Notes: generated by a model not told the origin, from the sequence alone. DNA of 64,000 nt from Lentisphaerales bacterium (GCA_030622955.1 JAUXFM010000001.1:4185-68184), one strand, 5' to 3'; shown: positions 11,731 through 30,403, numbered from the stretch's first letter. Numbers and translations are program-made.

Positions 11731-11732
11731 GT

Positions 11733-13247
11733 CTATCCCTTGAACCGGGCTCTCACGCCCTCCGCGAACGAGTCAATGGCCGATGCATCCGCAACTGCGA
11801 GTTTCTCGCCGGCCTCAATTCGAGCCAGCAATTCCGACAGTTGTTCTGGGGCCTCCCGGCGCAAGCTCTGTTCAAAAGCACGCACCTGTTCGACATCCAG
11901 TTCGTTCAGAATGTCGCTGGAAGCTATCTTAAGGATCACCACCTGCAAAGCAAGAGAGATCGGATCATTCGCAAGCTGCTTGAGGATTTCTCTCAACCGC
12001 TTCCCCTTTTCCAGGGCTGCTCGGGTATCTTCTTCCAGCGTTGTGCCGAACTTCGTGAACTGCTCAAGTTCAAGGAACTGGGTATAGGTCAACCGCAGTT
12101 GCTGGGCAAGACTCTTCATGGCAGGAATCTGCGTCTTGCTGCCAACACGACTGACGCTCAACCCGATATCTACTGCCGGCAAGAAACCCGATTGATAAAG
12201 CTCTGGGCTGAGATAGACCTGGCCATCAGTTATCGAGATCAGGTTAGTGGGTATATAAGCAGAAATGTTCTGCGCCTGCGTCTCAATGATCGGCAGAGCC
12301 GTCTGAGATCCCCCGCCATGCTTCTCGTCAAGCTGTGTTGCGCGCTCCAGCAGGCGAGAATGAATGAAAAATACATCGCCTGGATAGGCTTCACGGCCGG
12401 GTGGCCTTCTCATTAGAAGACTGAGCTCACGATAGGTTTGCGCGTGTTTCGTCAGGTCATCGTACACAACAAGGGTGTCACGACCCTGCTCCATGAAGAA
12501 CTCGCTTATCGTGCAACCGGCGTAGGGCGTGATGAATTGCAGCCCGGGGGATGAGTCGGCGTCGGCTACAACAACCACTGTATGGTCCATGGCGCCGCAT
12601 TCGCGCAGGGTTTTAATGATGCGGGCAACCGATGATGCTCTCTGACCGACCGACACGTAAACGCAAATCACACCCGTCTTCGCCTGGTTAATAATCGCAT
12701 CAATCGCAATAGTAGTCTTCCCCGTGCTACGATCGCCGATTATCAGTTGTCTCTGGCCACAGCCGATAGGAATCAAGGAATCGACGGATTTCAGACCCGT
12801 CGACAGCGGCTTCACGACGGGAGAGCGGGCAAGAATCGCAGGTGCTTCTTTCTCGATCGGATCGTAGCGTTCAGCTGCTACGGGGGAACCCCCATCGAGA
12901 GGATTGCCCAGCGGGTCAATAACACGTCCCACAAGGTTGTCGCCCACCGGCGTACGTGCAACTTCCCCCGTACATTCAACAGTCTCACCGGCCATGATAT
13001 CCGTATCATCGCCGAGCAGGACACAGCCGATCTCGTCTTCGTCGACATTGAACGCCATGCCGGTGACAACGTGAGAGAAACGTATCAGCTCAAGCGACCT
13101 GGCGCTCGGCAATCCCGAGATCCTGGCAATTCCGTCACCTGCACTGACTATTCTGCCGATCTCGCTGGTACGTGGTTCAACAGGAGCCGCGGCCGCGGAT
13201 TTCTCCAGGCTCGCCAGGGCCTGCCGGCTTGTTTCAAGAATACTCAC
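11733..13247 (-). CDS. atpA: ATP synthase alpha subunit (N-ATPase operon)
   Basis: Walker A 'GDRSTGKTTIA', and the product is 504 aa. Confidence 0.95.
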   Translation of the reverse strand: MSILETSRQALASLEKSAAAAPVEPRTSEIGRIVSAGDGIARISGLPSARSLELIRFSHVVTGMAFNVDEDEIGCVLLGDDTDIMAGETVECTGEVARTPVGDNLVGRVIDPLGNPLDGGSPVAAERYDPIEKEAPAILARSPVVKPLSTGLKSVDSLIPIGCGQRQLIIGDRSTGKTTIAIDAIINQAKTGVICVYVSVGQRASSVARIIKTLRECGAMDHTVVVVADADSSPGLQFITPYAGCTISEFFMEQGRDTLVVYDDLTKHAQTYRELSLLMRRPPGREAYPGDVFFIHSRLLERATQLDEKHGGGSQTALPIIETQAQNISAYIPTNLISITDGQVYLSPELYQSGFLPAVDIGLSVSRVGSKTQIPAMKSLAQQLRLTYTQFLELEQFTKFGTTLEEDTRAALEKGKRLREILKQLANDPISLALQVVILKIASSDILNELDVEQVRAFEQSLRREAPEQLSELLARIEAGEKLAVADASAIDSFAEGVRARFKG

Positions 13248-14005
13248 TTGCTGTCATCCTTTTCTTCAGCAACATCGACGGACACCATCTCACGTACACG
13301 GACCAGTACATCGGACAAGCTGGCATCAACGGCCGAGGAACTGAACTCCACACGCGCACCTGCAATCAGGTCATCGTCTGTCTTGAATTCGATCTCTACA
13401 GATGTCCCGGCCACTTTGTGAATTCGTTCGGTTATCTTCTTGCGATCGACCTCGGCAAGTTCCAGGGCGCTGATCACACGCACAGGAAGTTCTTCATCGG
13501 ACGACGTGTCTGCTGGCGCACCAACCTTGTCAAGTTCTGCGAGCAGACGTTCCTGTAGCCGTGATTGCAGATCCACATCGACCAGCTTGCGCAGGATGTC
13601 GCCAGCAACGGCCACTCCTGTGTTTACAATATCCTGCTGCAGCGTCTTCCTGGCCTCGCGGGATTCGCGTTCATAGACGCGTTTCAGGTTCGCGATCTCT
13701 GTCTCTGCACCTCTAGTCGCCTTCTCGAGAAGCTTGTCGGCGGCATCTGCCGCTGATTTGCTTGCTTTAGCCCGGATCTCATCCGCTTCCTGTGCGGCGC
13801 GAGCCAGCTTACTCTCGTACTCCTGTTTCGCCTGTTCAGCTTTCTCGGTCTCTTCTTTGGCTTCCTGCTGCGCATCCTCAATGGATTTCCGACGCGATTC
13901 CAGAACGCCCAAGAGCGGCTTATGCAGTAACTTCCACAAAAGCCCCACAAGAATAATGAAGTTGATAACGGCAAATCCGAACGACAGCCAACTGAATTCC
14001 AACAT
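13244..14005 (-). CDS. atpF: ATP synthase subunit b (long N-ATPase-type b; no separate delta gene)
   Basis: A single N-terminal TM is followed by a long charged coiled coil, 253 aa in total. It overlaps atpA by 4 bp. Confidence 0.8.
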   Translation of the reverse strand: MLEFSWLSFGFAVINFIILVGLLWKLLHKPLLGVLESRRKSIEDAQQEAKEETEKAEQAKQEYESKLARAAQEADEIRAKASKSAADAADKLLEKATRGAETEIANLKRVYERESREARKTLQQDIVNTGVAVAGDILRKLVDVDLQSRLQERLLAELDKVGAPADTSSDEELPVRVISALELAEVDRKKITERIHKVAGTSVEIEFKTDDDLIAGARVEFSSSAVDASLSDVLVRVREMVSVDVAEEKDDSK

Positions 14006-14029
14006 GACGAATATCTCCGTTGGGTCAGA

Positions 14030-14320
14030 CTACTTCACGAATAGGATAATGAACGCCATTACCAGACAGTATATTGCGGTGGATTCCACCATCGCCAATC
14101 CGACAAACAGCGTACGAGAGACCGTACCGCCGGCGTCAGGCTGTCTTGCTATGGAATCGAGGGCCTGGGCCAGGGCTTTCCCTTCGGCGAACGCGGGACC
14201 AACCGAACCAATAGCTATAGTGGCACCTGCCACTATATATCGAACCATTTGCAGGAGCGTTTCCGCCTCCAATTGGGCTACTTCCATACTCTTAGCTACT
14301 TCTACTGCGACTTCATTCAT
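14030..14320 (-). CDS. atpE: ATP synthase c subunit (Na+-binding-type motif)
   Basis: The second helix carries 'ESTAIY', which has the Na+-coordinating E-S-T...Y spacing of Ilyobacter c-subunits. The start is chosen at the 'MNEVAVE' Met, so it is uncertain by a few codons. Confidence 0.8.
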   Translation of the reverse strand: MNEVAVEVAKSMEVAQLEAETLLQMVRYIVAGATIAIGSVGPAFAEGKALAQALDSIARQPDAGGTVSRTLFVGLAMVESTAIYCLVMAFIILFVK

Positions 14321-15062
14321 TCTTCGTATCTCCTTTCGGGGATGTGGTTGCGACTTTCTCTTTGACGGTACGCCGCTCAACCACTGCCCCGATATAAACA
14401 AGAGCCAGTACCGTAAATATGTATGCCTGGATAGCTGCCGTGATCAGGCTGAGAATGGAAAGAAAAAGTGTCAGCACAAAGGCTACTGGCATGAAAACAA
14501 CCGCATAGCCCTTGACTACCGTTGTCACAACACCCACAACAACCAGCAGCAGAAACTCGCCGCTCATTATGTTGCCGAAAAGGCGAATCGCCAGCGACAA
14601 GGTCCGCGTGATTTCACCAAGCAGATTGAATGGAAGCATGAAGGGATTCGGCTGAAGATAACTGCGCGCATACTTGCTCATACCTTTCGAAGAAATCCCA
14701 TAAAACGGCACTGAGCAGAATACGATCATGGCCAGTGCCACAGTAACACTCAAATCGCCCGTTGGACTACTCAAACCCGGAATCATGCCCACCAGGTTAG
14801 CCGTAAACACGAACAGGAACAACGTGCCAGCGAGAGGAATAAATGGTTTCGGGTCACTGCGAACGATTTCCCTGATCAGCGAGCAGAGCTGTTCCATGAA
14901 CATTTCGAACATACTCTGGAGCCTGCCCATCCGACCGAGACGAATACCACGCGAGAGAAAGAGGGAGAGCAGGAGCAGAAACACCATCACTCCCCAGGTA
15001 GCATATGCGCTCTGCGGGACATGTTGCAGAATTAACACCAGTTTGTTCATTACTTCAGGCAT
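14313..15062 (-). CDS. atpB: ATP synthase a subunit
   Basis: 5-TM protein with the conserved 'LSLAIRLFGNIMSGE' Arg-containing helix. Confidence 0.9.
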   Translation of the reverse strand: MPEVMNKLVLILQHVPQSAYATWGVMVFLLLLSLFLSRGIRLGRMGRLQSMFEMFMEQLCSLIREIVRSDPKPFIPLAGTLFLFVFTANLVGMIPGLSSPTGDLSVTVALAMIVFCSVPFYGISSKGMSKYARSYLQPNPFMLPFNLLGEITRTLSLAIRLFGNIMSGEFLLLVVVGVVTTVVKGYAVVFMPVAFVLTLFLSILSLITAAIQAYIFTVLALVYIGAVVERRTVKEKVATTSPKGDTKNE

Positions 15063-15381
15063 CCTGTTTGTCTTCTTCGACTGCCTCTCTCTTCACCATG
15101 CGCGATACGAGGAGGCGCGCAACTATAGCGCCGACAGTTCCTGAAAGCATGGCTGCTGCTATCTTCTCACCCGGCAGGTTGACAGCCACCAGCACCAGGA
15201 TCACGCCGACAATCAAAATACGCGCGTAGAGAGCTGCCGGTACAACCCAGAGCGGCCCGCTCTTCTTCAACACATAGTTAACCTGGAGCCGGATAGACAG
15301 AAAGAACAATCCGCCAAACACAAACCCCACCACCAGGGAAACCAGCCAGCCAACAAACCCCATACCCATCAGTTCTTTCAT
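15055..15381 (-). CDS. atpR: N-ATPase accessory membrane protein AtpR
   Basis: Small 3-TM protein with a conserved intramembrane Arg, sitting between atpQ and atpB as in N-ATPase operons. Confidence 0.65.
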   Translation of the reverse strand: MKELMGMGFVGWLVSLVVGFVFGGLFFLSIRLQVNYVLKKSGPLWVVPAALYARILIVGVILVLVAVNLPGEKIAAAMLSGTVGAIVARLLVSRMVKREAVEEDKQDA

Positions 15382-15673
15382 ATCTTCTCCTTAATCATCC
15401 GCCAGGCTGTGATGCAACCTATAATGACCCCCACAAGCAAAAAAAAGACCGTGAAGATCTGCGCGGAATCTAATCGGCCATCAAGCCATCTGCCCAGCAA
15501 CACTCCCAGGGCAGCAGGAACAGAAATGGACCATCCGACTGTCCCGGCCATGCCGACAGATCGCCAGAACGAGGAATCACCATCTCGCACATGCTCTTCG
15601 TGCCGTTCCCGTCTGCGCTGGACCTCTGCCAAAAATGCATCCCTTCCTCTTCCGCGCTCTGCCTTCTCCGCAG

Positions 15674-15677
<4 letters not shown>
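15378..15677 (-). CDS. atpQ: N-ATPase accessory protein AtpQ (AtpI/AtpZ-like)
   Basis: 99 aa 2-TM protein located between atpC and atpR. Confidence 0.65.
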
Positions 15678-17634
<1,957 letters not shown>

Positions 17635-17851: not shown

Positions 17852-17927
17852 ATGGCGCGCCCACGGGGAGTCGAACCCCGCTTACCAGGATGAAAACCTG
17901 GTGTCCTAAACCGATAGACGATGGGCG
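17852..17927 (-). tRNA. tRNA-Glu (anticodon UUC)
   Basis: The reverse complement folds as a cloverleaf. It has a 7-bp acceptor stem GCGCCCA/TGGGCGC, anticodon stem CCAGG/CCTGG with loop TTTTCAT (UUC), a T-arm CGGGG-TTCGACT-CCCCG, and an encoded CCA. Confidence 0.85.
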
Positions 17928-18061
17928 CACTGTTCTGCAAGCATGCGGAAGATACCATAAACAGGACTCCGCACAACAAAAAAACAGCAAATCTCCCGAA
18001 ATACCGGGCATTTCAAAAGACTTGCCCAAATTGCCATTCAGTTTTATCATTTAAGGAGCTC

Positions 18062-18733
18062 ATGCGCAAATATCTGTCGGTTAAGAATCTTGAACAGGCC
18101 CTGATATTGGCGAGTGTCTGCACCGTGATGTCGATACCACGCATGTCAATGGGCAAAATGCCGTTGCAGTGGTGTATCCCTTCCGCCGTCTGCTGCCTGA
18201 CACTTGTTGCCGGCGCTGCCACCGCATGGGGGAAGTACGCAGGACTCCCGGGCATCTTTCCGACTTCCCGGAGATCGCTGGTGGGCGTACTGGCGGCTAT
18301 CCTGCTGGGCCTGGTGTTCGTGCCCGTCAGAATGATGATGGATCCAACAGTGAAAGAGATCTTCGCCAGGGATCTTACGCCTGAAGCGATGTCTCTCATC
18401 TATCCCACAACACTAACGGGCTGCGTTGCGCTCGTGCTCTGGGCCGCGAGTTTCGGGGTGCTCTTCTTCCAGGCAGGCACGATCTCTTTCCTCGCACGGC
18501 TGACAGGCCGTAGGTCAATAGCCGTCGCCGGATCGGTTGCACTGCGGCTCTACGTGATGCACATGAAGATGGCCAGCAGAGAAGTGGAGTCCCTCCCCTT
18601 CATGCTGGCGGGGACCACCATAGTCGGACTGGTCACCGCCATGCTTTACATTAAAGGCGGGCTACCGGCAGCAATGGCCTTCGCTGCAACAGTTGATAGC
18701 AGACATTTCCTTCTACTCGCCGGAGAAGAATAG
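18062..18733 (+). CDS. Hypothetical polytopic membrane protein
   Basis: The ORF has 5-6 hydrophobic helices and no recognisable family. The start is at ATG 18062, after the tRNA. Confidence 0.4.
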   Translation: MRKYLSVKNLEQALILASVCTVMSIPRMSMGKMPLQWCIPSAVCCLTLVAGAATAWGKYAGLPGIFPTSRRSLVGVLAAILLGLVFVPVRMMMDPTVKEIFARDLTPEAMSLIYPTTLTGCVALVLWAASFGVLFFQAGTISFLARLTGRRSIAVAGSVALRLYVMHMKMASREVESLPFMLAGTTIVGLVTAMLYIKGGLPAAMAFAATVDSRHFLLLAGEE

Positions 18734-18998: not shown

Positions 18999-19718
18999 CT
19001 ATTTTCTGCGCAAGGCGCTGAAATGTTTCAGAACGGGCTCAAGTGTCTTGTAACTGTCAAGCGTTGTTGACACTATCAGGCGGCCTGCACCAAAATCATA
19101 GCTTGCAAATGCGCCTTCCGGAAACTTCGCACCTAATCCTTCGAAATACGCTTTGGCCGTTGTCTTCTTGATGCCCTGCACGCGCCACTGCTCTATGGCA
19201 TAGGTCCTGGTGAACAGACGCGGCGTGTCTTCTGTGGTCTCCCTGGCAAGGAGCACCGAGTTATTGCGTATCTTCACGGACAAGCCGCTCACCATTGCAA
19301 TTGTATTAAGCAGCTCCTCAAGGGTCATCGTCGACCCTGAGAACGTAATAGCGCCAACATTGTCATCCTTCTTGACGTTCAGGATGATGTTGACCCCTGT
19401 CTTGTCGGGATCCTGCGCCTTGGACTGATACCGGAGAAAGGTCACAACATCCTGCATGTCGGCCGCTCTGAAATCGATCTTCGGGATCTTTATGATCTTC
19501 AGCTTCTGCTCAACGGTCAATGTAGATTTCTTGATCTCATTCTTGGCTCTAACCAGCACGTATTCTTTCTTATCGACCAGGACCTTGGCGCCAGTCTTGT
19601 CACTGAACGGACCAAAGATCTTGCCAGTGCTCTTCTCCTGGAGGTAGAAGAGTTCAGCGCTCGCGAGTTGCGTGAAAATGACAAAAGAACAGACTGCAAA
19701 CAGTAAACATTTCTTCAT
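18999..19718 (-). CDS. Hypothetical secreted protein (signal peptide; Lys-rich; lower-GC gene)
   Basis: Signal peptide 'MKKCLLFAVCSFVIFTQLASA'. The gene is visibly more AT-rich than its neighbours. Confidence 0.5.
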   Translation of the reverse strand: MKKCLLFAVCSFVIFTQLASAELFYLQEKSTGKIFGPFSDKTGAKVLVDKKEYVLVRAKNEIKKSTLTVEQKLKIIKIPKIDFRAADMQDVVTFLRYQSKAQDPDKTGVNIILNVKKDDNVGAITFSGSTMTLEELLNTIAMVSGLSVKIRNNSVLLARETTEDTPRLFTRTYAIEQWRVQGIKKTTAKAYFEGLGAKFPEGAFASYDFGAGRLIVSTTLDSYKTLEPVLKHFSALRRK

Positions 19719-19912: not shown

Positions 19913-20980
19913 TCACATCCCACGCCCCAGGAAGTCAACAGTGATGATCTCGGGCTTGCAATAGACGCGCAGCGGGGGTGATGATGCACCCAAACCTGAC
20001 GTCACGAACAAGTGCGTATCATCAAGCTTGAAATGACCATGACAGAAACGCCGCCCGTACTTGGACGGTATCACCAATGGCCCAATGAAAGGTAACCGCC
20101 CCTGCCCACCGTGAAAATGTCCGGCAAAAACCGCATCGGCCCCTGCCTCGCTCAAGTCGTAGATATTATCCGGCGTATGTGTCAACGCCAGCAGCAGATC
20201 GCCATTCGTTTTCTGAGGTAAACGGTAATCCTTGCAACCCCATGGTGCATCATACCCGCAGATGATCGCATTATGGTCACTCGAAATCGGCACTTTTGCC
20301 GTCTCTCCGCTGAGCAATATCAGCCCACACTCTCGAAGCGTCCGGGCAACATCATCGCCCCCTACCCAATGGTCATGATTGCCCAGCACGGCAAAGGTCC
20401 CGCATTTTGCCTTCATCTTTGCCAGAATCCCCGGCAGCAACGGAATCCAATGGTGTTCTGAAACAAAATCCCCGGCCATGAATATGACATCGGGCTCTGC
20501 CGCCACAGCACGTCGGAGCGCAGCCTTGTAGTAACTGATCGGAAACAGGTCATTAACATGCAGGTCGCTCATGAGCACAACCCTGAAGCGATCGAACTGC
20601 CATTTCTCGTTCCTGATCTCGTATCGACGTTCTGCGAGATCGAAGGTCGTAAAAGGTTTCACGAGAGAGATGTGCGTGTTGCTGCTTTCGACAGGCGCCG
20701 GCGCTGCGCACTGCCGCCCGAGCATCGCGTCGCGAATCTCGTTCAGGAGCAGGATGATCACTATCGCAATCGGGGCCCCGAGCCATGCAGAAAGCCCGAG
20801 ATAATACCCGCCGACCACTGGCGCAAGTACCAGTGCGGCAAGAAACGAGAGCAAGACCCAGCGCTTGGCATTACCATCGCACATGTGCAACAAACGTCGG
20901 CTGAACAGGACCATGTAGACGGTCATCCCGCCAATGCCGTACAAACCGGCCGCAAGAATGTTATCCCAATTTAGCATCAT
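19913..20980 (-). CDS. Membrane-anchored metallophosphoesterase (calcineurin-like, YkuE/YaeI-type)
   Basis: Three N-terminal TMs, then MPP motifs 'DLHVND', 'GDFVSEHHW', 'GNHDHW', 'GHFHGGQ'. Confidence 0.8.
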   Translation of the reverse strand: MMLNWDNILAAGLYGIGGMTVYMVLFSRRLLHMCDGNAKRWVLLSFLAALVLAPVVGGYYLGLSAWLGAPIAIVIILLLNEIRDAMLGRQCAAPAPVESSNTHISLVKPFTTFDLAERRYEIRNEKWQFDRFRVVLMSDLHVNDLFPISYYKAALRRAVAAEPDVIFMAGDFVSEHHWIPLLPGILAKMKAKCGTFAVLGNHDHWVGGDDVARTLRECGLILLSGETAKVPISSDHNAIICGYDAPWGCKDYRLPQKTNGDLLLALTHTPDNIYDLSEAGADAVFAGHFHGGQGRLPFIGPLVIPSKYGRRFCHGHFKLDDTHLFVTSGLGASSPPLRVYCKPEIITVDFLGRGM

Positions 20981-21258
20981 TCCCGTTCCTGTAATTTCCT
21001 TCTGACCACATAATAATCGAACAGCACATGGCCAATCCTTGCCAGTATCATACCGGGCAATGCCAGGGCCACCATGATTCTAACCAACAGGAAGAATCCT
21101 GCCAGCAAGAGGGTAGTCCCTGGCACATGCTCGCCAGCGGCGAAGATTACTGACATAACATTGTTCGCCGCAAGATAATGAATCAGAACAACGTGCAGGA
21201 AGAGCAGGCCAAAGATCTCAATGCAGCTCACAATCATCGTTTTCCGCCAGTTTCTCAT
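20977..21258 (-). CDS. Small hypothetical membrane protein (3 TM, 93 aa)
   Basis: Its start overlaps the upstream gene by 4 bp and its stop overlaps the downstream gene by 4 bp. This fits translational coupling within an operon. Confidence 0.45.
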   Translation of the reverse strand: MRNWRKTMIVSCIEIFGLLFLHVVLIHYLAANNVMSVIFAAGEHVPGTTLLLAGFFLLVRIMVALALPGMILARIGHVLFDYYVVRRKLQERE

Positions 21259-22448
21259 TGGCCGGTTCCCGCAGTTAACATGGCAAACATGATAGCGTCC
21301 CCCAGCGGACCGCCGACAACAAAATTGAATTTGTCCTTCTTCTTGAATGGTGCACCACAGACATACGCAGTACCGACCAACTTGGAATAGTAAATCTGAT
21401 CGCCATGGATCCTGCTACCAGAGATCAAGAAACCCGTGGGAGAAAGGCCCAGCCCACAGACAACTGGCCCGGAATCAATATCGCCGCATTGTTCCAACGG
21501 TTCCGCCGAGCCCGAATACTCCCTGACGCCACCAAAACCAAATATCGTTCGGGCAAGTGAACGACTCGTCGCGTCATAAAGATCCTCCGAGAATTCCATA
21601 TCCGCGAAAGAAAGAAAGTAGAGTCCAAGCGCCGTACCTGATCCACGCGGTTCGTCAACCGGCCTTCCATCAGACAGAACGCACTGGTAGAGCAAACCAC
21701 TTTCCTTATCGACATACCTCATCCGGCACGTCGCGACCCATTCGGCAAGGAACTCAGAGTGATCAACGCCACTGGCTTTTCCATGCAACCCGATAGAGCC
21801 TATGACTGCACAATTGTCCACTGGGTAATATTCAGAGGGATACGATTCTATGAGAGAGATATCACTCTGCTCTACCCGCTTCCTCAGAGCCCCGGTAATA
21901 CTGTCGTTCAAGTCTGCGTACTTGGAATCCGGATCCACGAGCCTATGAAGTCCAAGCACCATGTTGAAATAACCCAGGTATGCAGCATGCGCCGAGTCCT
22001 TTGATAGCGAGTCGATCGGATCATCACCCCACATCTCTCTATCGAACTTCCTGACCTCTTCAGAAAGTAATCGCTCAATACAGGCGTCCATCAGTCGCTC
22101 ATGTTTCTCACGTAATTCAGGGTGCGCTAGAGCAGTCTGGCCATACCCCATTGCCGCCATCGTGTAGGTGCCGAACAACCACTCGCCATTGAATTGGGAT
22201 GACCCCGTCGTGAAATCGTTTCTGGAAAGATCGGTCAGCAACCATTCCGCTACGCCATTTCCGAGCGCTCGATGTAGTTCCAGTTTGCCGTCATACCATT
22301 TGCCTGCGTCGCGACGTGCCCAGAAGCGTGGGAGCAAGCAGGAACCTATGACAAACAAGAGAATCCCGACCATGAATCTGAGAGCGCCAAGGCGCAGGCG
22401 CAGACCCAACGGAACAGGGCTCTTACCACATGTGCTTTTCTTGATCAT
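21255..22448 (-). CDS. N-terminally membrane-anchored protein with linalool dehydratase/isomerase (LDI)-like (alpha/alpha)6-barrel domain (paralog A)
   Basis: Blocks 'GEWLFGTYTMAAMGYG...ELR', 'WGDDPID...YLGYFNMVLGLHRLV', 'YPVDNCAVIGSIGL' and 'DIDSGPV' align, by recall, to Castellaniella LDI ('EAWEL...', 'WGDWEEDGFGTDPIE..YKGHLNLMYGLYQLV', 'NYFVQCNSVAYLSL'). The same ~330-aa domain recurs in the next large gene. Confidence 0.55.
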   Translation of the reverse strand: MIKKSTCGKSPVPLGLRLRLGALRFMVGILLFVIGSCLLPRFWARRDAGKWYDGKLELHRALGNGVAEWLLTDLSRNDFTTGSSQFNGEWLFGTYTMAAMGYGQTALAHPELREKHERLMDACIERLLSEEVRKFDREMWGDDPIDSLSKDSAHAAYLGYFNMVLGLHRLVDPDSKYADLNDSITGALRKRVEQSDISLIESYPSEYYPVDNCAVIGSIGLHGKASGVDHSEFLAEWVATCRMRYVDKESGLLYQCVLSDGRPVDEPRGSGTALGLYFLSFADMEFSEDLYDATSRSLARTIFGFGGVREYSGSAEPLEQCGDIDSGPVVCGLGLSPTGFLISGSRIHGDQIYYSKLVGTAYVCGAPFKKKDKFNFVVGGPLGDAIMFAMLTAGTGQ

Positions 22449-22724
22449 TCACATTTTCCGCCGTAACCCCTCAATCCACAGCAAGCTTCCTGCGATGACA
22501 AAGATGGGGGCAAGAACAATGCCGCCGAGATACGCGACGACATAGGTAAGGCCTAATATAGCCGACAGATACTGCCCTGATCCTGCCGCACCTACGGTGC
22601 CGCAGAGGATGCTCGTGTAATTCCTGAGCCCGAACAGGTCGCACAGGACAAGGAACAACACCAGTAGCACAGCACGACCGAGAAGGCCACCTGTCGACAT
22701 AAACTTGCTTCTGCCCGTCTTCAT
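22449..22724 (-). CDS. Small hypothetical membrane protein (2-3 TM, 91 aa)
   Basis: Tightly packed between the two LDI-like genes, with a 4-bp overlap with the upstream gene. Confidence 0.45.
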   Translation of the reverse strand: MKTGRSKFMSTGGLLGRAVLLVLFLVLCDLFGLRNYTSILCGTVGAAGSGQYLSAILGLTYVVAYLGGIVLAPIFVIAGSLLWIEGLRRKM

Positions 22725-25075
22725 CTCGCCCCCCTTGAACTCAGATCACCATCGCACCTGCGCTCGATAAGATCCCACAATGGCCCCATCACCATTGCGT
22801 AGAGCATAACCGCGTCGCCAACCTGATTACTCGCGCAATAGCGAAGTTGCCCCTTCTTTTCGATCGGGAACCCGCCAAACTCCAGGGATGTGAGCAGATC
22901 CTGGAGATACGAGAAATCACCAAAAGCACTCGCACCAACGAAGGCCAATCCACTAGAACCGGCACTTATCTCTACAATAGGTATTACAGGACCCGAATCA
23001 ATATCCACCGGGCTGCGCCATGATTCAGGCCATTCCTTTGCATAGCCACAGCCGAACAACGTCTTGCCAAGTTCTTTCTTCGCACGCCGGTACTGATCTT
23101 CGGCAAATTCTCCGTCAACGAGTTGCAGGCAATGAGCTGCCAGCCAGATAGATGATCCTTCGGGCCCATCGAACGGTGTCCCATCGAACCCATAACTGGA
23201 GATGAGCAAACCCGTATCTGAATGTACCAGTTCCTGTTTTGCCGCCTTGATCCATTCGTCCAGGAACTCGCTGTGATCAAGCCCATCGAGAGCATCTGAA
23301 GCCTTGATGGCTGCCAGTGCTATGGAATTGCAGAAGACCCAGCATTCGTTGGGATAGCTCTCACCTGAGAACACAGGACTTTGCTTCATACATTTCACCA
23401 TGAGCTCAACCCGTTCCTGGAGGAGCGGCTTGTATTCCGACTTCTCTTCGACAAGTCTGCGCGCCGCCAGCATCAATGCAATCTCGCCGTCTTGAAAGAT
23501 GCTTCGGCCGGGTTTTGCAACGAAATTGCCCGTCCTTGCGTAGTCCAGGAGGAAGTAATAGATACCATGCTCCTTCTCAAGGCGAATGGTCTCGTCGATT
23601 ATTGAGTCCATAATATCGAGGTAGACGCCTTTTGATGACGGCTCACGCAACGCCATGTTGCTCAACGACAGAACGAGGAAGGTCCGCCCCATGAAATCCC
23701 ACTCAGCATTGCTCGCCCGCATCCTGGTTATCTCCTCCTTGCGCAGTGATGGATTCGACCATAGCTCGATATGTCTCGATGCGAGCGCATGCGCTTTGGG
23801 CGGGATGTTCTTTCCTCCAAAGTACTCATACACATCCTGCTTGAAGAAGATGTGAAGGCTGGGCAACCAGATGGCCGTAGCAATCCCCAACGCCAACAGC
23901 CCTTTCCCAATCCGATGTGCCCTCTCCGAAAAGCTCTCTTTCTTTGCATCGGCAGGCCGTAGAGTTTTCGCCATTCCTGTTTTTTTGCAAAAAGCATCGC
24001 ATACCAATTCTGCGATCACCGCGCATTCCAATCCAAACGGCAGGTAGCCGGCATAACCGAGTATCGGCATTTCGAACAATGTGAGCTTGTGCACGAACGG
24101 TACTTCGTAGATCCATTTCGCGACACTGAAGAAGTTCCACATCTCCCACAAGAACCCGCAGATCAGGGCTGCCATGGCAAGAAGGTAGAGCTTACGCCAC
24201 TTCCCTTTACTGATCCGCGCAAAGATCGTGGCTTCACCGCAGATGCATCTGAGCGCGGTCATGATGCATAGCGGCGAAAGCCAGAGCAGGGGAAATAGAT
24301 AACTCGGGTACAGCCCGATCAACGCAAGACCTCCAGCAGAGATGCTAAGTATCGGCCATGCCAGCGTGCGTGGATCCCGAGCTTCGATCCTTGCAAAATC
24401 GTCCAGTCCGGCCCCGATACGCGGATAGGAGTCGAGCAGTTCGTATGTCCCCATCACCGCCGGCAGGACTGTAGAAAACGGGAGTGTCGCGAAAAGGAAG
24501 TATTGGAGTGATGACAGGTCCTGTATGCCTTCGTAGTACCAGTTCTGTACGAATCGATTGAGATATTCGAAGAACCACCAGAACACGGCGCTGAACAGGA
24601 AGAGCAATATGAAATATTTTGGGCGATCCTTTAGCATACAGCGTCCTGTACGCCGGAGCGTCAGGCCGTTGATTACCAAGACATAGCCGAACCAGATCGG
24701 ACTAAACGTGAACTGCTGGAACGGGGCGAACCATGTGAACCTGTTCCACGCGAGCAGCCAGGTCGTGACTATGAGCACCAGGCCAAGCCAGCCCCACCAG
24801 GGAAACGCAATCTTCAATGAGCTGCCCGGATCAATGTTCTTCCGCCATTTGTAGACTCGTATATCGAATGGCAAAATTACCGCCAGCAGCATGACCGCGA
24901 GCGCAACGAAATGGATCCAGGAGAAATCCGCATGGGGCACGTACCAGGTCAAAGGCGGAAACTCGGCATATTTCGAGATCGACACCCCCTTGATCCAGAC
25001 CCCGATGAGCGGCAATCCGATCAGCATCGCGAGTGAGATACCGAGCCATAGAGCTCGTCTGACTCTTCCACTCAT
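22721..25075 (-). CDS. Fusion protein: ~440-aa Trp-rich polytopic membrane domain + C-terminal LDI-like (alpha/alpha)6-barrel domain (paralog B)
   Basis: The N-terminal half has ~10 hydrophobic helices rich in W/F/Y. The C-terminal half ('DHSEFLDEWIKA...DTGLL...DGPEGS...EFAEDQY...VDIDSGPV...NQVGDAVM') is clearly paralogous (~35% identity) to 21255-22448. It retains both LDI-like Cys positions ('NEC...FCNSIA'). Confidence 0.6.
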   Translation of the reverse strand: MSGRVRRALWLGISLAMLIGLPLIGVWIKGVSISKYAEFPPLTWYVPHADFSWIHFVALAVMLLAVILPFDIRVYKWRKNIDPGSSLKIAFPWWGWLGLVLIVTTWLLAWNRFTWFAPFQQFTFSPIWFGYVLVINGLTLRRTGRCMLKDRPKYFILLFLFSAVFWWFFEYLNRFVQNWYYEGIQDLSSLQYFLFATLPFSTVLPAVMGTYELLDSYPRIGAGLDDFARIEARDPRTLAWPILSISAGGLALIGLYPSYLFPLLWLSPLCIMTALRCICGEATIFARISKGKWRKLYLLAMAALICGFLWEMWNFFSVAKWIYEVPFVHKLTLFEMPILGYAGYLPFGLECAVIAELVCDAFCKKTGMAKTLRPADAKKESFSERAHRIGKGLLALGIATAIWLPSLHIFFKQDVYEYFGGKNIPPKAHALASRHIELWSNPSLRKEEITRMRASNAEWDFMGRTFLVLSLSNMALREPSSKGVYLDIMDSIIDETIRLEKEHGIYYFLLDYARTGNFVAKPGRSIFQDGEIALMLAARRLVEEKSEYKPLLQERVELMVKCMKQSPVFSGESYPNECWVFCNSIALAAIKASDALDGLDHSEFLDEWIKAAKQELVHSDTGLLISSYGFDGTPFDGPEGSSIWLAAHCLQLVDGEFAEDQYRRAKKELGKTLFGCGYAKEWPESWRSPVDIDSGPVIPIVEISAGSSGLAFVGASAFGDFSYLQDLLTSLEFGGFPIEKKGQLRYCASNQVGDAVMLYAMVMGPLWDLIERRCDGDLSSRGAR

Positions 25076-25113: not shown

Positions 25114-25380
25114 TTAGTCATCTTTGCTTTTCTTCTTCGCCCACCTGGTACTGATTGCAGTCACGAGCATGCAGAAACACATGACCCCCGCCCCGATCAA
25201 CAACCCTGCGAGCAGGCCCGTTGCGGCTGCATATCGCACGATCTTAGTTGCGCCGGTGAACAGGCACTCACTGGCGAATTCCGGTGAGATCAATGCGAGT
25301 ACAACTCCAAAGATCGAACCCAGCAATGCCGAGAACAACGCCGCCCCCAACACGTACAAGAAACCTATTACTGCTTTCAT
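25114..25380 (-). CDS. Small hypothetical membrane protein (2 TM, ~88 aa)
   Basis: A GGAGGGA RBS precedes the ATG at 25380. The product is hydrophobic with a basic tail. Confidence 0.45.
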   Translation of the reverse strand: MKAVIGFLYVLGAALFSALLGSIFGVVLALISPEFASECLFTGATKIVRYAAATGLLAGLLIGAGVMCFCMLVTAISTRWAKKKSKDD

Positions 25381-25496
25381 TTCTTCCCTCCTTCTTTCTT
25401 TATAATAGATCAACCTATTTGTCTTACTCGCGGGGACCCGACTACGCTCAGACATGGCTTCATCGCGGCATGCCGCCGTCTCCATCTTGCATGAGA

Positions 25497-26210
25497 TTAA
25501 CCGAGAGCGCCACACCATGCGCGCCACAAGTATTCATAGAAGTTACTGCTAAATGCGTTCGGGTTAAAGAACGGGACCGGCATATCCGGGCGCGCCAGGT
25601 ATGGACTCATCAGCCATGAGAGTTGGCAACCGGCGAACCCGGACACCAGTATCCACGCCGCCAACACTCGCCCTGCGAGAGCGCGCGAACCTGTCAACAA
25701 TCCCAGCAGCTTGTATAATCGAACGTTCCCCACAATGCCGCAGGCGCCAATTACTCCGGCATGCAGGGTGAGTAATGTCCTATAGACAATCATCGCTGAT
25801 GGCGCCGTGTGATCCGGCACCTGTGTCACTACGAACAGCGCCACCGGACTCAACCCACCAAGAAGCATGGATGTGATCGCAAATGCTACCAGCATCGCCA
25901 CAAGCACTTTCTTCATGGAAAGGTCCGCGCCCATAACTCTTGCCAACATGTAATTGATAAGCGTGCTTACGATCACGACCGCGACTATAAGGAGCGGCAT
26001 CTTCAGTAATGAATAGCAGGCTTGCCTCGCCGAGCGCCAGATACCAAAGACAGCTCCATACGGGATGGTCCCGGCAGCGATCGCAAGACAGCATCCCGTG
26101 ATAATCGATCGAATCTGATTTTCAGACTTGATCCCCTGAAGCAGCCGATCGTCCATGCGACAGATAGGGCCGGGCCCGTAATCAGTCCAGCTCTGTAGAA
26201 TACTTATCAT
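25497..26210 (-). CDS. Hypothetical 5-6 TM membrane protein (Yip1-like architecture)
   Basis: Hydrophobicity pattern. It overlaps the upstream gene by 4 bp. Confidence 0.4.
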   Translation of the reverse strand: MISILQSWTDYGPGPICRMDDRLLQGIKSENQIRSIITGCCLAIAAGTIPYGAVFGIWRSARQACYSLLKMPLLIVAVVIVSTLINYMLARVMGADLSMKKVLVAMLVAFAITSMLLGGLSPVALFVVTQVPDHTAPSAMIVYRTLLTLHAGVIGACGIVGNVRLYKLLGLLTGSRALAGRVLAAWILVSGFAGCQLSWLMSPYLARPDMPVPFFNPNAFSSNFYEYLWRAWCGALG

Positions 26211-26974
26211 TCGAAACTTCTGAATATGTGCGTAATGAATGATTTCTTCCCCTGCAATCTGAACCCATCGTACTCACCAATAAGCGGACGGAGCACAGTG
26301 CACATCTGCAGGGCTACCAGCACAAAGATGATGCTCCACAACCTGACAAGTTTCAGGCTGCGCTTGTTGAGGAGCAGAAATGCTTTCTTGAGGAGCTCCA
26401 ACCCGAAGCCCATGCCGACCAGCCAGAAAAGCAGGTGCGTGAATCCCATGAAGCCGATGGTATCGGTCGATTGCGAGAAGATCCATGCGACCGGCGCAAA
26501 CCCGATCAACAACAACGAGCTGAGCGCAAGCGTCGCCAGGAGCAGATTCCAGACCTGCGAGAATGACTGATCGCCTCCGCAAATGCAGGAGAAGATGTAC
26601 AGGCTCGGCAGGCATATGAGTGCACTCGCGTAGAGCCCGATGGTCACCTTCAAGGGTGCCATCCATAGCTGGTGTCCCCCTGAAAAGAATCCCATCACCA
26701 CACCATAGCCGATCATGCAAAGCGATATGATCAGAAGCAATGAGGCACAGACTCCCCGCGAGTTGCCCTTGATGATCTCGTAGATCACGCGTGCAGGACG
26801 CTTGAGGATTTCCTCGATTACTGAGGTGGTCGCCGTGCCTTTTTCCATCGGCTCGAAATTGCTCTCGAAGCCCTTCTTGTCACTCGGAGGTATCGATGGC
26901 GGCTTTGCTGCAAAACAATCCCCGGCCTCTTTCATCGTTCCGCGTATCTTCTCAACATAATCCTCGTCCTGCAT
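26207..26974 (-). CDS. Hypothetical membrane protein with ~75-aa cytoplasmic N-domain + 5 TM (Yip1-like architecture)
   Basis: Hydrophobicity pattern. It is first in the overlapping pair. Confidence 0.4.
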   Translation of the reverse strand: MQDEDYVEKIRGTMKEAGDCFAAKPPSIPPSDKKGFESNFEPMEKGTATTSVIEEILKRPARVIYEIIKGNSRGVCASLLLIISLCMIGYGVVMGFFSGGHQLWMAPLKVTIGLYASALICLPSLYIFSCICGGDQSFSQVWNLLLATLALSSLLLIGFAPVAWIFSQSTDTIGFMGFTHLLFWLVGMGFGLELLKKAFLLLNKRSLKLVRLWSIIFVLVALQMCTVLRPLIGEYDGFRLQGKKSFITHIFRSFE

Positions 26975-27063: not shown

Positions 27064-27447
27064 TTAAGCTTTCACTGCCCTAGTCAAAAATGCGGTGAGG
27101 TCTTTCTTCTTCTCCGCTGGCATTGCAGCGGCGGCACCCTTCAGAACTTCGGAGAGAGCGCTGAGGTATTCACTGAAGCGATCCAGTCCTTTGTCTGAGA
27201 GGCCAACGGTCGTTCGCGGTTTCGAATCGACAAATGATTTCCTTATCTTAATCACCTTCGCTTCCTCGAGGACCTTGAGATGGCGGTTCAGATTGCCGTC
27301 GGTCAGGTTGCACTGCTCTTTCAATTCCGTGAAGGAAAGTCCTTCCTGCGCTCCGCAGAGCGCTGACATGATCGAGAGTCTATTTGGTTCATGGAATATC
27401 TTCTCAAGCGCTTCATATGGATTCTGATTATCTTCTTTGCGTTTCAT
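27064..27447 (-). CDS. Winged-helix transcriptional regulator (HTH_34-like)
   Basis: 'LSFTELKEQCNLTDGNLNRHLKVLEEAKVIKI' is a classic wHTH recognition helix plus wing, 127 aa. Confidence 0.65.
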   Translation of the reverse strand: MKRKEDNQNPYEALEKIFHEPNRLSIMSALCGAQEGLSFTELKEQCNLTDGNLNRHLKVLEEAKVIKIRKSFVDSKPRTTVGLSDKGLDRFSEYLSALSEVLKGAAAAMPAEKKKDLTAFLTRAVKA

Positions 27448-27459
27448 GATCTTCGCCCT

Positions 27460-28092
27460 TCATTTCTTGTTGAATTGTTTTTCAAATCGATTCGAACCGT
27501 GCAGGACTATGCCTCCGATGGTTTCGCCGGCACAGAACGCTATTCCCATCGGCCAGGGATTGAGAAAAGAGACCTGCGTGGCGAGACAGAATGCGCCAAA
27601 GAGAATGTAACCAAGCCCAATAATGTAGATAGGCCGTGGCAGTGAGAGCCGGTACGCCACCTGGGCAAGTCCATACAGGCACATCCAGATTCCTAAAAGA
27701 AGGTCGTATTGCCCCGCAAGGATAACAGCCACGCTCAGCACGGCCCCTACTACAAGAGCGGGGATGGCATCAATGGCAGGTTTCGCCTGTCGGAAATCGC
27801 GCTGCACGACAGGATTGAAGAGGAACCAGTATGCGAGTGCTCCGTAGTTAAGAACGAGCGCAAGGGTGAGGATGATACCCCACCCGATCAGGTGTGCGTT
27901 CGGTATTGCAGGCACTTCGCCAGAGTCCAGGACGGCTGCGCCAGCTAATGCTCCGAGTCCTGAAATGATGCGTGCCGGACCCGAATAGCCTTTGAAAAAC
28001 CTCTTTTCGAGCACGTATTCCTGGACTTTTCTGACCTGTGCCAGCGCATCATGTATATGATTAGCTATCATCTCATCCAGATCGTATCCCAT
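27460..28092 (-). CDS. Hypothetical membrane protein (4-5 TM)
   Basis: Hydrophobic ORF immediately upstream of the wHTH regulator on the same strand. Confidence 0.4.
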   Translation of the reverse strand: MGYDLDEMIANHIHDALAQVRKVQEYVLEKRFFKGYSGPARIISGLGALAGAAVLDSGEVPAIPNAHLIGWGIILTLALVLNYGALAYWFLFNPVVQRDFRQAKPAIDAIPALVVGAVLSVAVILAGQYDLLLGIWMCLYGLAQVAYRLSLPRPIYIIGLGYILFGAFCLATQVSFLNPWPMGIAFCAGETIGGIVLHGSNRFEKQFNKK

Positions 28093-28300
28093 CGCAAAGT
28101 ACTTTGCAACACAAAGTTTTGGCTTTTTTCAAATTGGCCAGCAAGCAAGGATATTGCGTGATTTCCCCGCCTTTGGGATTGATTGAGATAGGGCTGATAG
28201 GATAGGCTTCCGGCCATATGCGATCCCCCGGAGGGCAAATGTGCCCCTCTTGGTTAATTTTTTCGCATATCTCAAGATTCACTTAATAAGGGAGGAAACG

Positions 28301-30403
28301 ATGAGAACTGATCTGATACTTGGCTCACTCGCCGCAGGTGTTGCGGCCCTTGTCTTCGCCGTATGGAAATCAGCATGGGTCAACAAACAGGACGCGGGCA
28401 CAGATAAAATGAAGGAAATCGGCGCCGCAATCCGTGATGGCTCTATGGCTTTTCTTTCTCGCGAGTACAAAGTACTTGGCATATTTGTCATCGCAGTCGC
28501 CGCCCTCCTTGCCTGGGGCAACTCATCATGGGTTAGGCTGGTTGCAGTTTCTTTTGTTGTTGGTGCGGTCTGCTCGGGTATTGCCGGCTTCTTCGGTATG
28601 CGCGTTGCAACGGCAGCCAATATGCGCACAACCCAGGGCGCACGCTCCGGCCTTTCCAAGGCGCTCCTCGTTGCTTTCTCAGGTGGCGCGGTGATGGGAA
28701 TGTGCGTGGTCGGACTCGGAATAGTTGGCTTGGCCACTCTTCTCCTTGTCTACACCCGCATAATTCCTAACGGTACATCGATTGAAGTCCTTCAGAGCAC
28801 CGTTCTTCCGATCGTCAATGGTTTTGCCATGGGTGCATCATCAATCGCACTCTTCGCACGTGTTGGTGGTGGCATCTATACGAAGGCCGCAGACGTTGGC
28901 GCAGACCTCGTCGGCAAAGTTGAAGCCGGCATCCCTGAGGATGATCCCCGCAACCCGGCCACCATCGCTGACAACGTTGGCGATAACGTGGGTGATGTTG
29001 CAGGCATGGGCGCTGACCTCTTCGAATCGTATGTTGGTTCGATAGTAGGTTCAATGGTGCTCGGCGCCGCCGCCGGCTCAGTAGAACTTGTGGTCCTCCC
29101 GCTCGTCATAGCAGGCGCTGGAATCATCGTTTCCATATTCGGCACTTTCTTCGTTAAAGTGAAAGAAGGTGGCAGCCCACAGGCCGCATTGAACGTAGGA
29201 ACGTTCGGCGCAGGAATCGTAATGGCGCTGTTGACTTATCCCCTCGTCCTGAAACTTGCACCCGCAACATTTGAGTATGCCGGTGTGACCTATCAGGCCA
29301 TCGGTATCTTCTGGGCAACGATCGCTGGCCTTGCTGCTGGTATTGCAATCGGTATGTTGACGGAATACTACACGGCGGAGAATCGTGGTCCGGTACGTAA
29401 GATTGCCAAGGCAGCAGAAACTGGCGCCGGTACCTGCATCATTGCAGGGCTCGGCACTGGAATGCTTTCCACTGCACTTCCGGTGATCTGCATTGGTGCG
29501 GCCATCATGGTTGCTTATCACTTTGCCGGTCTCTACGGCATAGCGATCGCAGCGCTTGGCATGCTGGCAACCACCGGCATCCAGCTCGCAGTTGATGCCT
29601 ATGGTCCAATCGCGGATAACGCAGGCGGCCTGGCCGAGATGGCGAAACTGGAACCCGAAGTGCGCAAGCGCACCGACAAGCTCGATGCAGTTGGCAACAC
29701 GACGGCAGCTATCGGCAAAGGGTTTGCCATCGGCTCAGCCGCGCTTACCGCATTGGCTCTGTTCGCAGCGTTCCGCACGACTGTTGGCATTGAGACGATC
29801 GATGTAACGAAGCCGACCATCATGGCTGGCCTGTTCCTCGGTGCAATGCTTCCCTTCCTGTTCTCATCATTCGCGATGGGCGCAGTTGGACGCGCAGCTT
29901 TTGCGATGATCGCTGAGGTCCGTCGTCAGTTCAAGGAAATCCCCGGCCTGCTGGCAGGCACAGGCAAAGCCGACTACGCCAAGTGCGTTGACATTTCCAC
30001 GGCAGCAGCTATTAAGGAAATGATCGTTCCTGGTCTAATCGCCATACTCACACCGGTCGTCGTAGGAATCGGCGGTGGTTACTTCCTTGGTTACAGGGAA
30101 GGCGCGGAGATGCTCGGCGGCGTGTTGGCCGGTGTTACAGTATCCGGCGTTATGATGGCGCTCTTCATGTCCAACGCAGGCGGCGCATGGGACAATGCCA
30201 AGAAATATATCGAAAGTGGTGCACTTGGCGGCAAGGGCTCAGAAGCGCACAAGGCAGCGGTGACTGGCGACACAGTCGGCGATCCTTTCAAGGACACCGC
30301 CGGTCCCTCGCTCAACATTCTTATCAAATTAATGAGTGTTGTTTCGCTGGTACTGGCCCCTATCCTTGCACGGTTGGCGGCTGCCGCTGCTAACGGAATG
30401 TGA
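28301..30403 (+). CDS. hppA: Membrane-integral pyrophosphatase, K+-dependent type (H+/Na+-translocating PPase)
   Basis: A GGAGG RBS precedes the ATG at 28301, and the product is ~700 aa with 16 TM. '[18 protein letters not shown]' has Ala at the K+-dependence determinant position (K+-independent enzymes have GNTTKA). Confidence 0.9.

Follow-up and report, generated by a model that had tools for sequence, protein, structure and literature searches.

Two LDI-like barrel proteins, each paired with a micro-membrane-protein gene, in a ten-gene array of a Lentisphaerales bacterium

What would two relatives of linalool dehydratase/isomerase (LDI) do in an operon that otherwise encodes membrane proteins? 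This question is raised by positions 19913-25075 of a 64,000-nucleotide stretch of a Lentisphaerales bacterium (GCA_030622955.1, JAUXFM010000001.1:4185-68184), which is called the window below. Five open reading frames (ORFs), here named A to E, lie on the minus strand at the positions given by a preliminary description of the window. That description read them as a five-gene cassette with LDI-like hydratase/isomerase domains. In the present analysis, A and C were assigned by alignment and predicted fold to a new variant inside the LDI superfamily, and A-E were found to be the distal half of a ten-gene array, which opens with a membrane protein gene (M) and a winged-helix regulator gene (R). 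The array is the local version of a cluster recurring in the Planctomycetes-Verrucomicrobia-Chlamydiae (PVC) superphylum. The ORFs of the region, with the parts of A, are as follows.

A, whole, 22721-25075, minus strand: 784 aa
A, residues 1-366 (An module), 23978..25075, minus strand: W/F/Y-rich domain with ten transmembrane (TM) helices, uncharacterised family
A, residues 367-411, 23843..23977, minus strand: K/R-rich linker (predicted cytoplasmic) and TM11, the membrane crossing that takes the barrel to the other side
A, residues 412-784 and stop, 22721..23842, minus strand: LDI-like (alpha/alpha)6 barrel, fused subfamily
B, 22449-22724, minus strand: 91 aa, 2-TM micro-protein
C, 21255-22448, minus strand: 397 aa, signal-anchored LDI-like barrel, stand-alone subfamily
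D, 20977-21258, minus strand: 93 aa, 2-3-TM micro-protein
E, 19913-20980, minus strand: 355 aa, membrane-anchored calcineurin-like metallophosphoesterase

Family membership and active-site positions of A and C

Residues 45-394 of C were aligned with residues 412-764 of A at 27% identity (E 2e-36). The blocks earlier listed as common to both (DHSEFL.EW, (E/D)(S/T)GLL, DG.P.D.P.GS, EF.ED.Y, DIDSGPV and (L/V)GDA.M) were all present in this alignment, in agreement with the proposed paralogy. PF18566 matched A with 26.1 bits, exactly its gathering score, and a Pfam scan of C gave no match. However, phmmer related C to the LDI entry of PDB with an E value of 2.8e-8, and profiles built from 43 C homologs and from the fused family matched LDI at E 1e-14 and E 2.8e-12, respectively. 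Structure predictions were made on monomers, and LDI was the closest (alpha/alpha)6 barrel to the fold of A and C. The PF18566, phmmer and profile matches therefore relate both proteins to LDI, as had been supposed. The view that one barrel is fused to a large aromatic-rich membrane domain was also borne out, A being composed of the An module, TM11 and the barrel.

LDI is a homopentamer with its active site at the subunit interface and acts on linalool, geraniol and myrcene. His129, which we take to be a catalytic residue, lies in this active site. Activity of LDI needs reduced Cys170 and Cys179, because the C170S and C179S variants were folded but inactive, and the active site is capped by a Cys48-Cys101 disulfide (PMC6600392). 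Cys170 and Cys179 of that study are C171 and C180 in the PDB entry, whose numbering is used here. In HMMER alignments, LDI C171 corresponded to Ser573 of A and Ser202 of C, C180 to Cys582 and Asp211, His129 to Glu531 (within an invariant DGE) and the invariant Tyr160, and Tyr176 to Cys578 and Tyr207. The disulfide partner Cys102 (C101 of PMC6600392) was mapped in C only, to Ser129, in an alignment without the C48 region. Invariant residues of the fused type comprised DGE and ESYP.ECW.FCN (E531, S573, C578 and C582), and those of the C type were Y160, Y203 and D211-N212. Each subfamily has its own set of invariant residues at the LDI catalytic positions: Glu/Ser/Cys/Cys for A, Tyr/Ser/Tyr/Asp for C.

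The fused copy had been said to retain both catalytic cysteines of LDI. This did not hold, since C171 is replaced by Ser573 and only C180 is kept as Cys582; the other invariant cysteine, C578, stands at the place of LDI Tyr176. For the stand-alone copy, the reported loss of the first cysteine (Ser202) stood, but the second is gone too (Asp211). As judged from these alignments, neither A nor C is a canonical linalool dehydratase, both being without the Cys171/Cys180/His129 set. Neither of them looks decayed; both families hold other, yet invariant, residues at the active-site positions of LDI, which argues against a simple dead copy, and the two look like differently specialised pockets. Since fold and homology agree with LDI and the catalytic residues do not, A and C are best filed as a new variant inside the LDI superfamily, not as LDI enzymes.

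Micro-proteins, the 10-TM module and membrane topology

Hydropathy gave two TM helices for B and two to three for D, and neither protein had a usable match in Pfam, NCBIfam or PADLOC. A genome scan with the C profile yielded 137 confirmed matches, from which 80 loci were kept, 76 of them untruncated. The C loci span Verrucomicrobiota, Kiritimatiellia, Lentisphaerae/Victivallales, Planctomycetota, Myxococcota, Sumerlaeota, Vulcanimicrobiota, Omnitrophota and others. In 71 of the 76 untruncated loci, the stop codon of the C homolog coincides with, or lies only a few bases from, the start of a downstream ORF of 80-146 aa that has two to three hydrophobic helices, and 65 of these 71 micro-ORFs have an NTGA start, which fits a start overlapping the upstream stop. 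D itself was recognised by tblastn in 40 loci. The consensus of its family (..lh..L...la......lla.G.h.p.....la..Fl..Rl...l.lPG..l.r) shows a conserved predicted periplasmic loop, S.(I/L)(F/L)A.G.H.P in D, and, in TM2, an Arg and a Pro-Gly. Taken together, the micro-ORF counts, the NTGA starts, the tblastn matches and the consensus indicate that C-D forms a deeply conserved, translationally coupled pair. The exact 93-aa D was absent from a collection of 15 billion proteins in which A, B, C and E were present, so such genes are likely under-annotated, and D was probably left unannotated in the source assembly or given another start.

B-like proteins were found after a fused-type barrel in four loci (L001, L015, L019 and L022), and the A-B and C-D pairs each turn up in the absence of the other and of E. 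In L019 (1827-5903), the order is M-R-C-(fused-type barrel without An)-B-D. This arrangement is an example of shuffling between the two barrel/micro-protein modules and of a fused-type barrel that stands unfused.

The An module was modelled with a predicted local distance difference test of 90.7 and a predicted template modelling score of 0.86. It had no match in Pfam or NCBIfam and no solved-fold relative; the best structural neighbour of the model was a lipid-binding Insig homolog, a weak match. When 1.84 billion cluster representatives were searched with an An profile that also took in barrel columns, 3851 proteins were obtained at E<=1e-3 and 961 at E<=1e-30, and most of the listed top matches were stand-alone proteins of ~365 aa. 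A Pfam scan of 104 An-family members revealed no family domain, save in one fusion with undecaprenyl-diphosphate synthase (UppS). The An family is large and strongly conserved, and this locus brings it to light. Its invariant residues include W110, W166, E170, W179, P205, P268, G307, W310, E311, W321, Y323, M336 and P337, and make two similar motifs, WW.FEYLNRF..NW.Y and FWEMWN....KW.Y. In the predicted topology both motifs lie at periplasmic ends, of TM5 and TM9, and a short beta-hairpin follows each in the model. An internal duplication of An, suggested by eye, was not significant (hhalign E 0.011, probability 4%).

In the PDESU_05651 region of the cultured species Pontiella desulfatans, An is a separate gene that overlaps the C homolog by 8 bp, in the order M-R-...-An-C-D, and in other loci An is fused to LDI-like barrels of three subtypes. 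Being separate but overlapping in one place and fused elsewhere, An and the barrels are connected by a Rosetta-stone link. Other fusions of An were also observed. L173 (870-2894) encodes one 674-aa protein composed of An (31-383) and UppS (425-645, PF01255, E 2.8e-78), with M-R ahead and a B12/radical-SAM gene behind. In L174 (6001-7761) and L175 (5430-7190), An carries a C-terminal exosortase-like region (PF09721, 25.3 versus 25.7 bits, borderline, on two contigs); this gene stands after M-R, and the next one encodes a multi-TM protein of ~990 aa in which a VIT domain matched weakly.

Residues 1-366 of A contain ten hydrophobic helices and 5.7% W, 8.4% F and 4.6% Y. TM11, ahead of the barrel, is a helix at 382-410 in the model, and the linker before it (364-388) is strongly basic, with 8-9 K/R ahead of TM11. 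Hydropathy and K/R counts for A gave an inside N-terminus, ten helices, the basic linker, TM11 and an outside barrel; the same analysis of C gave a basic N-terminus followed by a single helix and the barrel. Between An and the cytoplasmic UppS, the linker of the natural An::UppS fusion is free of hydrophobic segments, so that the C-terminus of An should be cytoplasmic, in independent agreement with the topology prediction. The hydropathy and positive-inside prediction, together with this fusion, indicate that both barrels are most likely on the periplasmic face of the inner membrane, like LDI. The preliminary description had proposed that the side of the barrels be predicted; the prediction places both on one side and favours the periplasm.

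The ten-gene array and its relatives

The A/B (...gcgagATGA), C/D (...ggccaATGA) and D/E (...cgggaATGA) junctions are each a 4-bp ATGA overlap, and at the B/C junction (...atgtgaATG) the TGA abuts the ATG with 0 bp. These 4/0/4/4-bp junctions agree with the translationally coupled five-gene array that had been described. The same-strand unit comprises ten genes from 28092 to 19913, in the order M-R-U3-U2-U1-A-B-C-D-E, and the genes ahead of A are as follows.

M, 27460..28092, minus strand: 210 aa, polytopic membrane protein, opens the array
R, 27064..27447, minus strand: 127 aa, winged-helix regulator (HTH_34 / ArsR-SmtB-like)
U3, 26207..26974, minus strand: 255 aa, 5-TM, Yip1-like through homolog annotation
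U2, 25497..26210, minus strand: 237 aa, membrane protein, weak paralog of U3
U1, 25114..25527, minus strand: small 2-TM ORF, start uncertain

The gap between M and R is 12 bp, that between R and U3 89 bp and that between U1 and A 38 bp; U3 and U2 are joined by a further 4-bp ATGA overlap. The longest ORF of U1 opens with GTG and shares 31 bp with the end of U2, and an internal Met (e.g. MKAVIG...) would give a 2-TM protein of ~87 aa. A homolog of U1 was seen in one locus only, L093. Consensus promoter and terminator scans of the region gave sites no more numerous than in shuffled sequence, an Rfam scan found tRNA only, and PADLOC assigned only generic winged helix-turn-helix (wHTH) models to the array proteins.

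R matched PF13601 (HTH_34) with an E value of 4.3e-21 and 75.3 bits, against a gathering score of 27, and HTH_20 with E 3.8e-10. Its match to the SdpR subfamily model NF033789 was below cutoff (E 8e-4, 19 bits versus 100). M has ~5 hydrophobic segments and no match in Pfam, NCBIfam or PADLOC; its homologs, with 45-61% identity, adjoin an HTH_34 gene in ~25 PVC loci. U1, U2 and U3 gave no usable match in Pfam, NCBIfam or PADLOC, and neither U3 nor U2 matched PF04893 even at E<=10. U3 has 3521 homologs, and one of them, P0388, which is 54% identical, carries PF04893 and the NCBI name Yip1 family protein. U2 was related to U3 by BLASTP (E 6e-4, 28% over 100 aa). The preliminary description had placed a wHTH regulator and Yip1-like membrane proteins upstream of the five genes. 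The regulator was identified as HTH_34, but the Yip1 label is indirect, through the U3 homolog.

M and R precede An in ~25 PVC loci, and the other genes vary. The variable genes encode U3/U2, CreD, ATP-grasp, M50 peptidase, a ~1000-aa VIT-like protein, An::exosortase-like and An::UppS, and B12-radical-SAM/DUF4070 genes lie within the cluster in at least 7 distinct loci. Genes of the related loci were called by crude ORF heuristics, and many of these loci are metagenome-assembled genome (MAG) or metagenome contigs with uncertain taxonomy labels. A polyprenol/phytol-kinase-like motif in a ~250-aa membrane protein upstream of An (L009 and L093) had no Pfam backing and was dropped. No description of the C-D pairing, of An or of the M-R-An cluster was found in Pfam, NCBIfam, PADLOC, PDB or the searchable literature, a negative that holds for these resources only; literature searches on LDI-like proteins in PVC and on "LDI-like" families likewise turned up nothing relevant.

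E matched PF00149 (Metallophos) with 42.6 bits against a gathering score of 21.5 and has three N-terminal TM helices. Its best NCBIfam matches were under the equivalog cutoffs, YaeI with 111.4 versus 188 bits and LpxG with 74 versus 350 bits. E had been counted as part of a conserved five-gene cassette, a claim that the neighbourhood survey contradicts: among ~170 loci examined, E-like genes were present in 2 others, with 26-27% identity and at differing positions (L013, between U2 and An; L046, 2 kb downstream). The survey indicates that E is a lineage-specific addition and not a conserved member of the cluster.

Several other features were observed in the window. Downstream of E, after a gap of 194 bp and on its strand, a 239-aa ORF (18999-19718, minus) begins with a signal-like helix and matches FecR_C weakly (E 0.004). 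On the other side of the array, a membrane H+-pyrophosphatase gene (28241-30403, plus; PF03030, E 7e-274) is divergent from M, and the 148-bp region between them has no obvious inverted repeat. A tRNA-Glu(TTC) at 17853-17928 (minus) is overlapped by 8 bp by a 270-aa membrane ORF (17921-18733, plus) with a very weak Rce1-like match (E 0.58), so the true start of this ORF is probably further downstream. An F-type ATPase operon occupies positions 10858-17598 (minus) and is complete, with the gene order beta, epsilon, (two small ORFs), a, (c), b/delta-fusion, alpha and gamma, and its b subunit carries an OSCP (delta) segment. Such a gene order is typical of N-type (Na+-translocating) operons, not of canonical atp operons. 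Beyond this operon, ~11.7 kb from E, a B12-binding radical SAM protein is encoded at 6760-8238 (minus; DUF4070, E 6.6e-40), which is 30% identical to the radical-SAM cargo of the M-R-An clusters.

Possible function and comparison with known systems

The barrels and the conserved residues of An are predicted to face the same side of the membrane and are physically tied, which points to a complex handling a membrane-embedded amphiphile. As a tentative model, possible though short of probable, we propose that the array encodes an inducible periplasmic-face complex acting on a lipophilic, perhaps polyisoprenoid, membrane molecule. In this model An, with its invariant acidic/aromatic motifs at the predicted periplasmic ends of TM5 and TM9, would bind or present the lipophile at the outer leaflet. 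This molecule would most plausibly be a lipid of the polyisoprenoid type or a terpenoid that partitions into the membrane. The tethered barrels would transform its head-group-proximal part via acid/base chemistry unlike that of LDI, B and D would anchor or complete their respective barrels, and E might be a lineage-specific accessory removing a phosphate or pyrophosphate ester. Expression would probably be switched by M controlling the ArsR-like repressor R, as in the sequestration of SdpR by SdpI.

An isoprenoid or lipid substrate is the leading hypothesis and the best single guess, drawn from weak clues. These are the precedent of LDI and of the linalool isomerase Lis, the lone UppS fusion, the B12-radical-SAM partners, the YaeI/LpxG-like phosphoesterase (here and in L013) and the weak Insig neighbour. 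LDI and Lis, the two characterised members of the family, both act on allylic terpene alcohols (PMC6600392, PMC4791888). A more specific version, which we regard as rather improbable, is that An is a widespread and hitherto overlooked family handling polyprenyl-(pyro)phosphate or polyprenol, as a transporter or an enzyme, and that the barrels with their micro-proteins act on the allylic head-group end of such carriers at the periplasmic face. If true, lipid-carrier metabolism or quality control would gain a new branch, present in PVC, Myxococcota and further phyla.

Several observations weigh against the proposed complex. The An::UppS fusion is known from a single 4.7-kb metagenomic contig, and no UppS gene was found near An in other loci. 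When the neighbours of 80 metagenomic An loci were clustered, none was conserved and the top clusters were spurious overlapping ORFs. Outside PVC, stand-alone An genes had no consistent neighbour, and the upstream neighbours of C-D were heterogeneous (MatE, S8 peptidase and alcohol dehydrogenase). Homology between B and D, which are co-linear but only weakly alike (hhalign probability 24%, E 8.6e-4), is not claimed. The topology of A and C is derived from hydropathy and charge bias only. As for the proposed switch, no inverted repeats that might serve as an operator were found in three intergenic regions, M could not be related to SdpI by sequence, and the two genes stand in the opposite order to sdpRI.

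The main rival to the isoprenoid reading is a carbohydrate substrate. The barrels would then process periplasmic glycans as hydrolase-, epimerase- or lyase-like enzymes, with intermediates of peptidoglycan, lipopolysaccharide/lipooligosaccharide or exopolysaccharide as substrates, and An would handle a glycan or lipid-linked glycan. The invariant acidic residues and the structural neighbours among sugar enzymes are consistent with this, and we give it a minor but real chance, below that of the proposed lipophile complex. Somewhat less likely again is an inducible immunity or detoxification locus, directed at an exogenous compound that acts on membranes, be it a toxic terpenoid, a lipopeptide or a peptide toxin. 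M would sense the compound and free the operon from R, and the Yip1-like proteins, An and the barrels would bind it, neutralise it or modify it on the outer side of the inner membrane. Such a role would fit the parallel of a ~210-aa membrane protein and an ArsR-like regulator with SdpI/SdpR (PMC2910880), the part taken by the Yip1-family protein YknW in SDP-toxin protection in Bacillus (PMC4887032), and the variable cargo after M-R-An (radical SAM, CreD, ATP-grasp, VIT-like and exosortase-like), which is typical of stress/defence islands. On the other hand, An and the C family are 50-60% identical across lineages, more like housekeeping envelope functions, PADLOC gave nothing beyond generic wHTH models, and the SdpI/SdpR analogy lacks sequence similarity for M.

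Two further explanations carry little weight. A dedicated A-B-C-D-E cassette, working as one obligate hydratase/isomerase and phosphoesterase machine, would suit the 4/0/4/4-bp junctions and the Metallophos gene inside the cluster of the closest relative, L013. However, the rarity, shifted positions and low identity of E-like genes largely refute it, as does the independent occurrence of A-B and C-D, and we consider it improbable. Least likely of all, to a degree that we nearly discount it, is that A and C are genuine monoterpene catabolic enzymes of the LDI or Lis type. They belong to the family by fold and sequence, and Lis is likewise membrane-anchored. Against this, both proteins have Ser where LDI has C171, an exchange that inactivated LDI as C170S (PMC6600392), and C180, whose C179S variant was also inactive, is replaced by Asp in C. 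In addition, H129 is replaced by Glu or Tyr and the disulfide partner C102 by Ser in C, no acyclic-terpene-utilisation genes lie nearby, and the family is widespread in MAGs of PVC and Myxococcota. The complex acting on a lipophile at the periplasmic face stays our preferred reading. If its substrate is a polyisoprenoid lipid carrier, the cluster bears on bacterial carrier processing and recycling; if not, it is still a testable conserved envelope module, and the cultured carrier Pontiella desulfatans could be used for genetics.

Among known systems, SdpR/SdpI resembles the head of the array. SdpI of B. subtilis is a 207-aa, 6-TM protein that sequesters the ArsR-type autorepressor SdpR (PMC2910880), and here, too, an ArsR-type wHTH gene adjoins the gene of a ~207-210-aa polytopic membrane protein at the start of an envelope-related operon. 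The differences are that no sequence similarity of M to SdpI was detected, the order is reversed and the match of R to the SdpR subfamily is weak. E shares its Metallophos domain and N-terminal TM anchoring with YaeI and with LpxG of Chlamydiae, with scores far under the equivalog cutoffs. The other (alpha/alpha)6 barrels, including AGE-family epimerases, the glycoside hydrolase (GH) families GH76, GH88 and GH105, and class II terpene cyclases, are far more distant from A and C than LDI is, and no shared catalytic motif was found with them; neither DxDD nor a GH catalytic pair was identified.

LDI (LinD) of Castellaniella defragrans (PF18566; PDB 5i3t and 5g1u) is soluble, whereas A and C are predicted to be membrane-tethered, their genes are each paired with a micro-membrane-protein gene, and A is fused to the 10-TM domain. 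Moreover, Cys171 and His129 are replaced in A and C, and Cys180 and the Cys102 partner in C. Lis of Thauera linaloolentis 47Lol is a 644-aa protein with 4 TM helices in 139 aa, 20% identity to LDI and activity in the inner membrane (PMC4791888). The preliminary description knew of no fusion to a 10-helix membrane domain together with a membrane phosphoesterase; Lis is a published membrane-anchored LDI homolog, but a fusion to the 10-TM An module is undescribed. Both Lis and A have a polytopic N-terminal anchor and a C-terminal LDI-like domain, a resemblance in architecture only. The Lis barrel is predicted to be cytosolic behind 4 TM helices in 139 aa, while that of A is predicted to be periplasmic behind 11 TM helices in 411 aa, built around an independently occurring 10-TM family; Lis is also an isolated gene, and A a cluster member. 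Lis nevertheless sets a precedent for membrane-anchored enzymes of the LDI family. A large 10-TM family without a Pfam model is tied to the barrels in PVC by fusion and adjacency, and a gene for a tiny membrane protein accompanies that of the stand-alone barrel subfamily, represented by C, in nearly every case. The LDI family has so far been known through two terpene-catabolic enzymes, and most of its diversity appears to consist of membrane-tethered proteins without the LDI catalytic residues.

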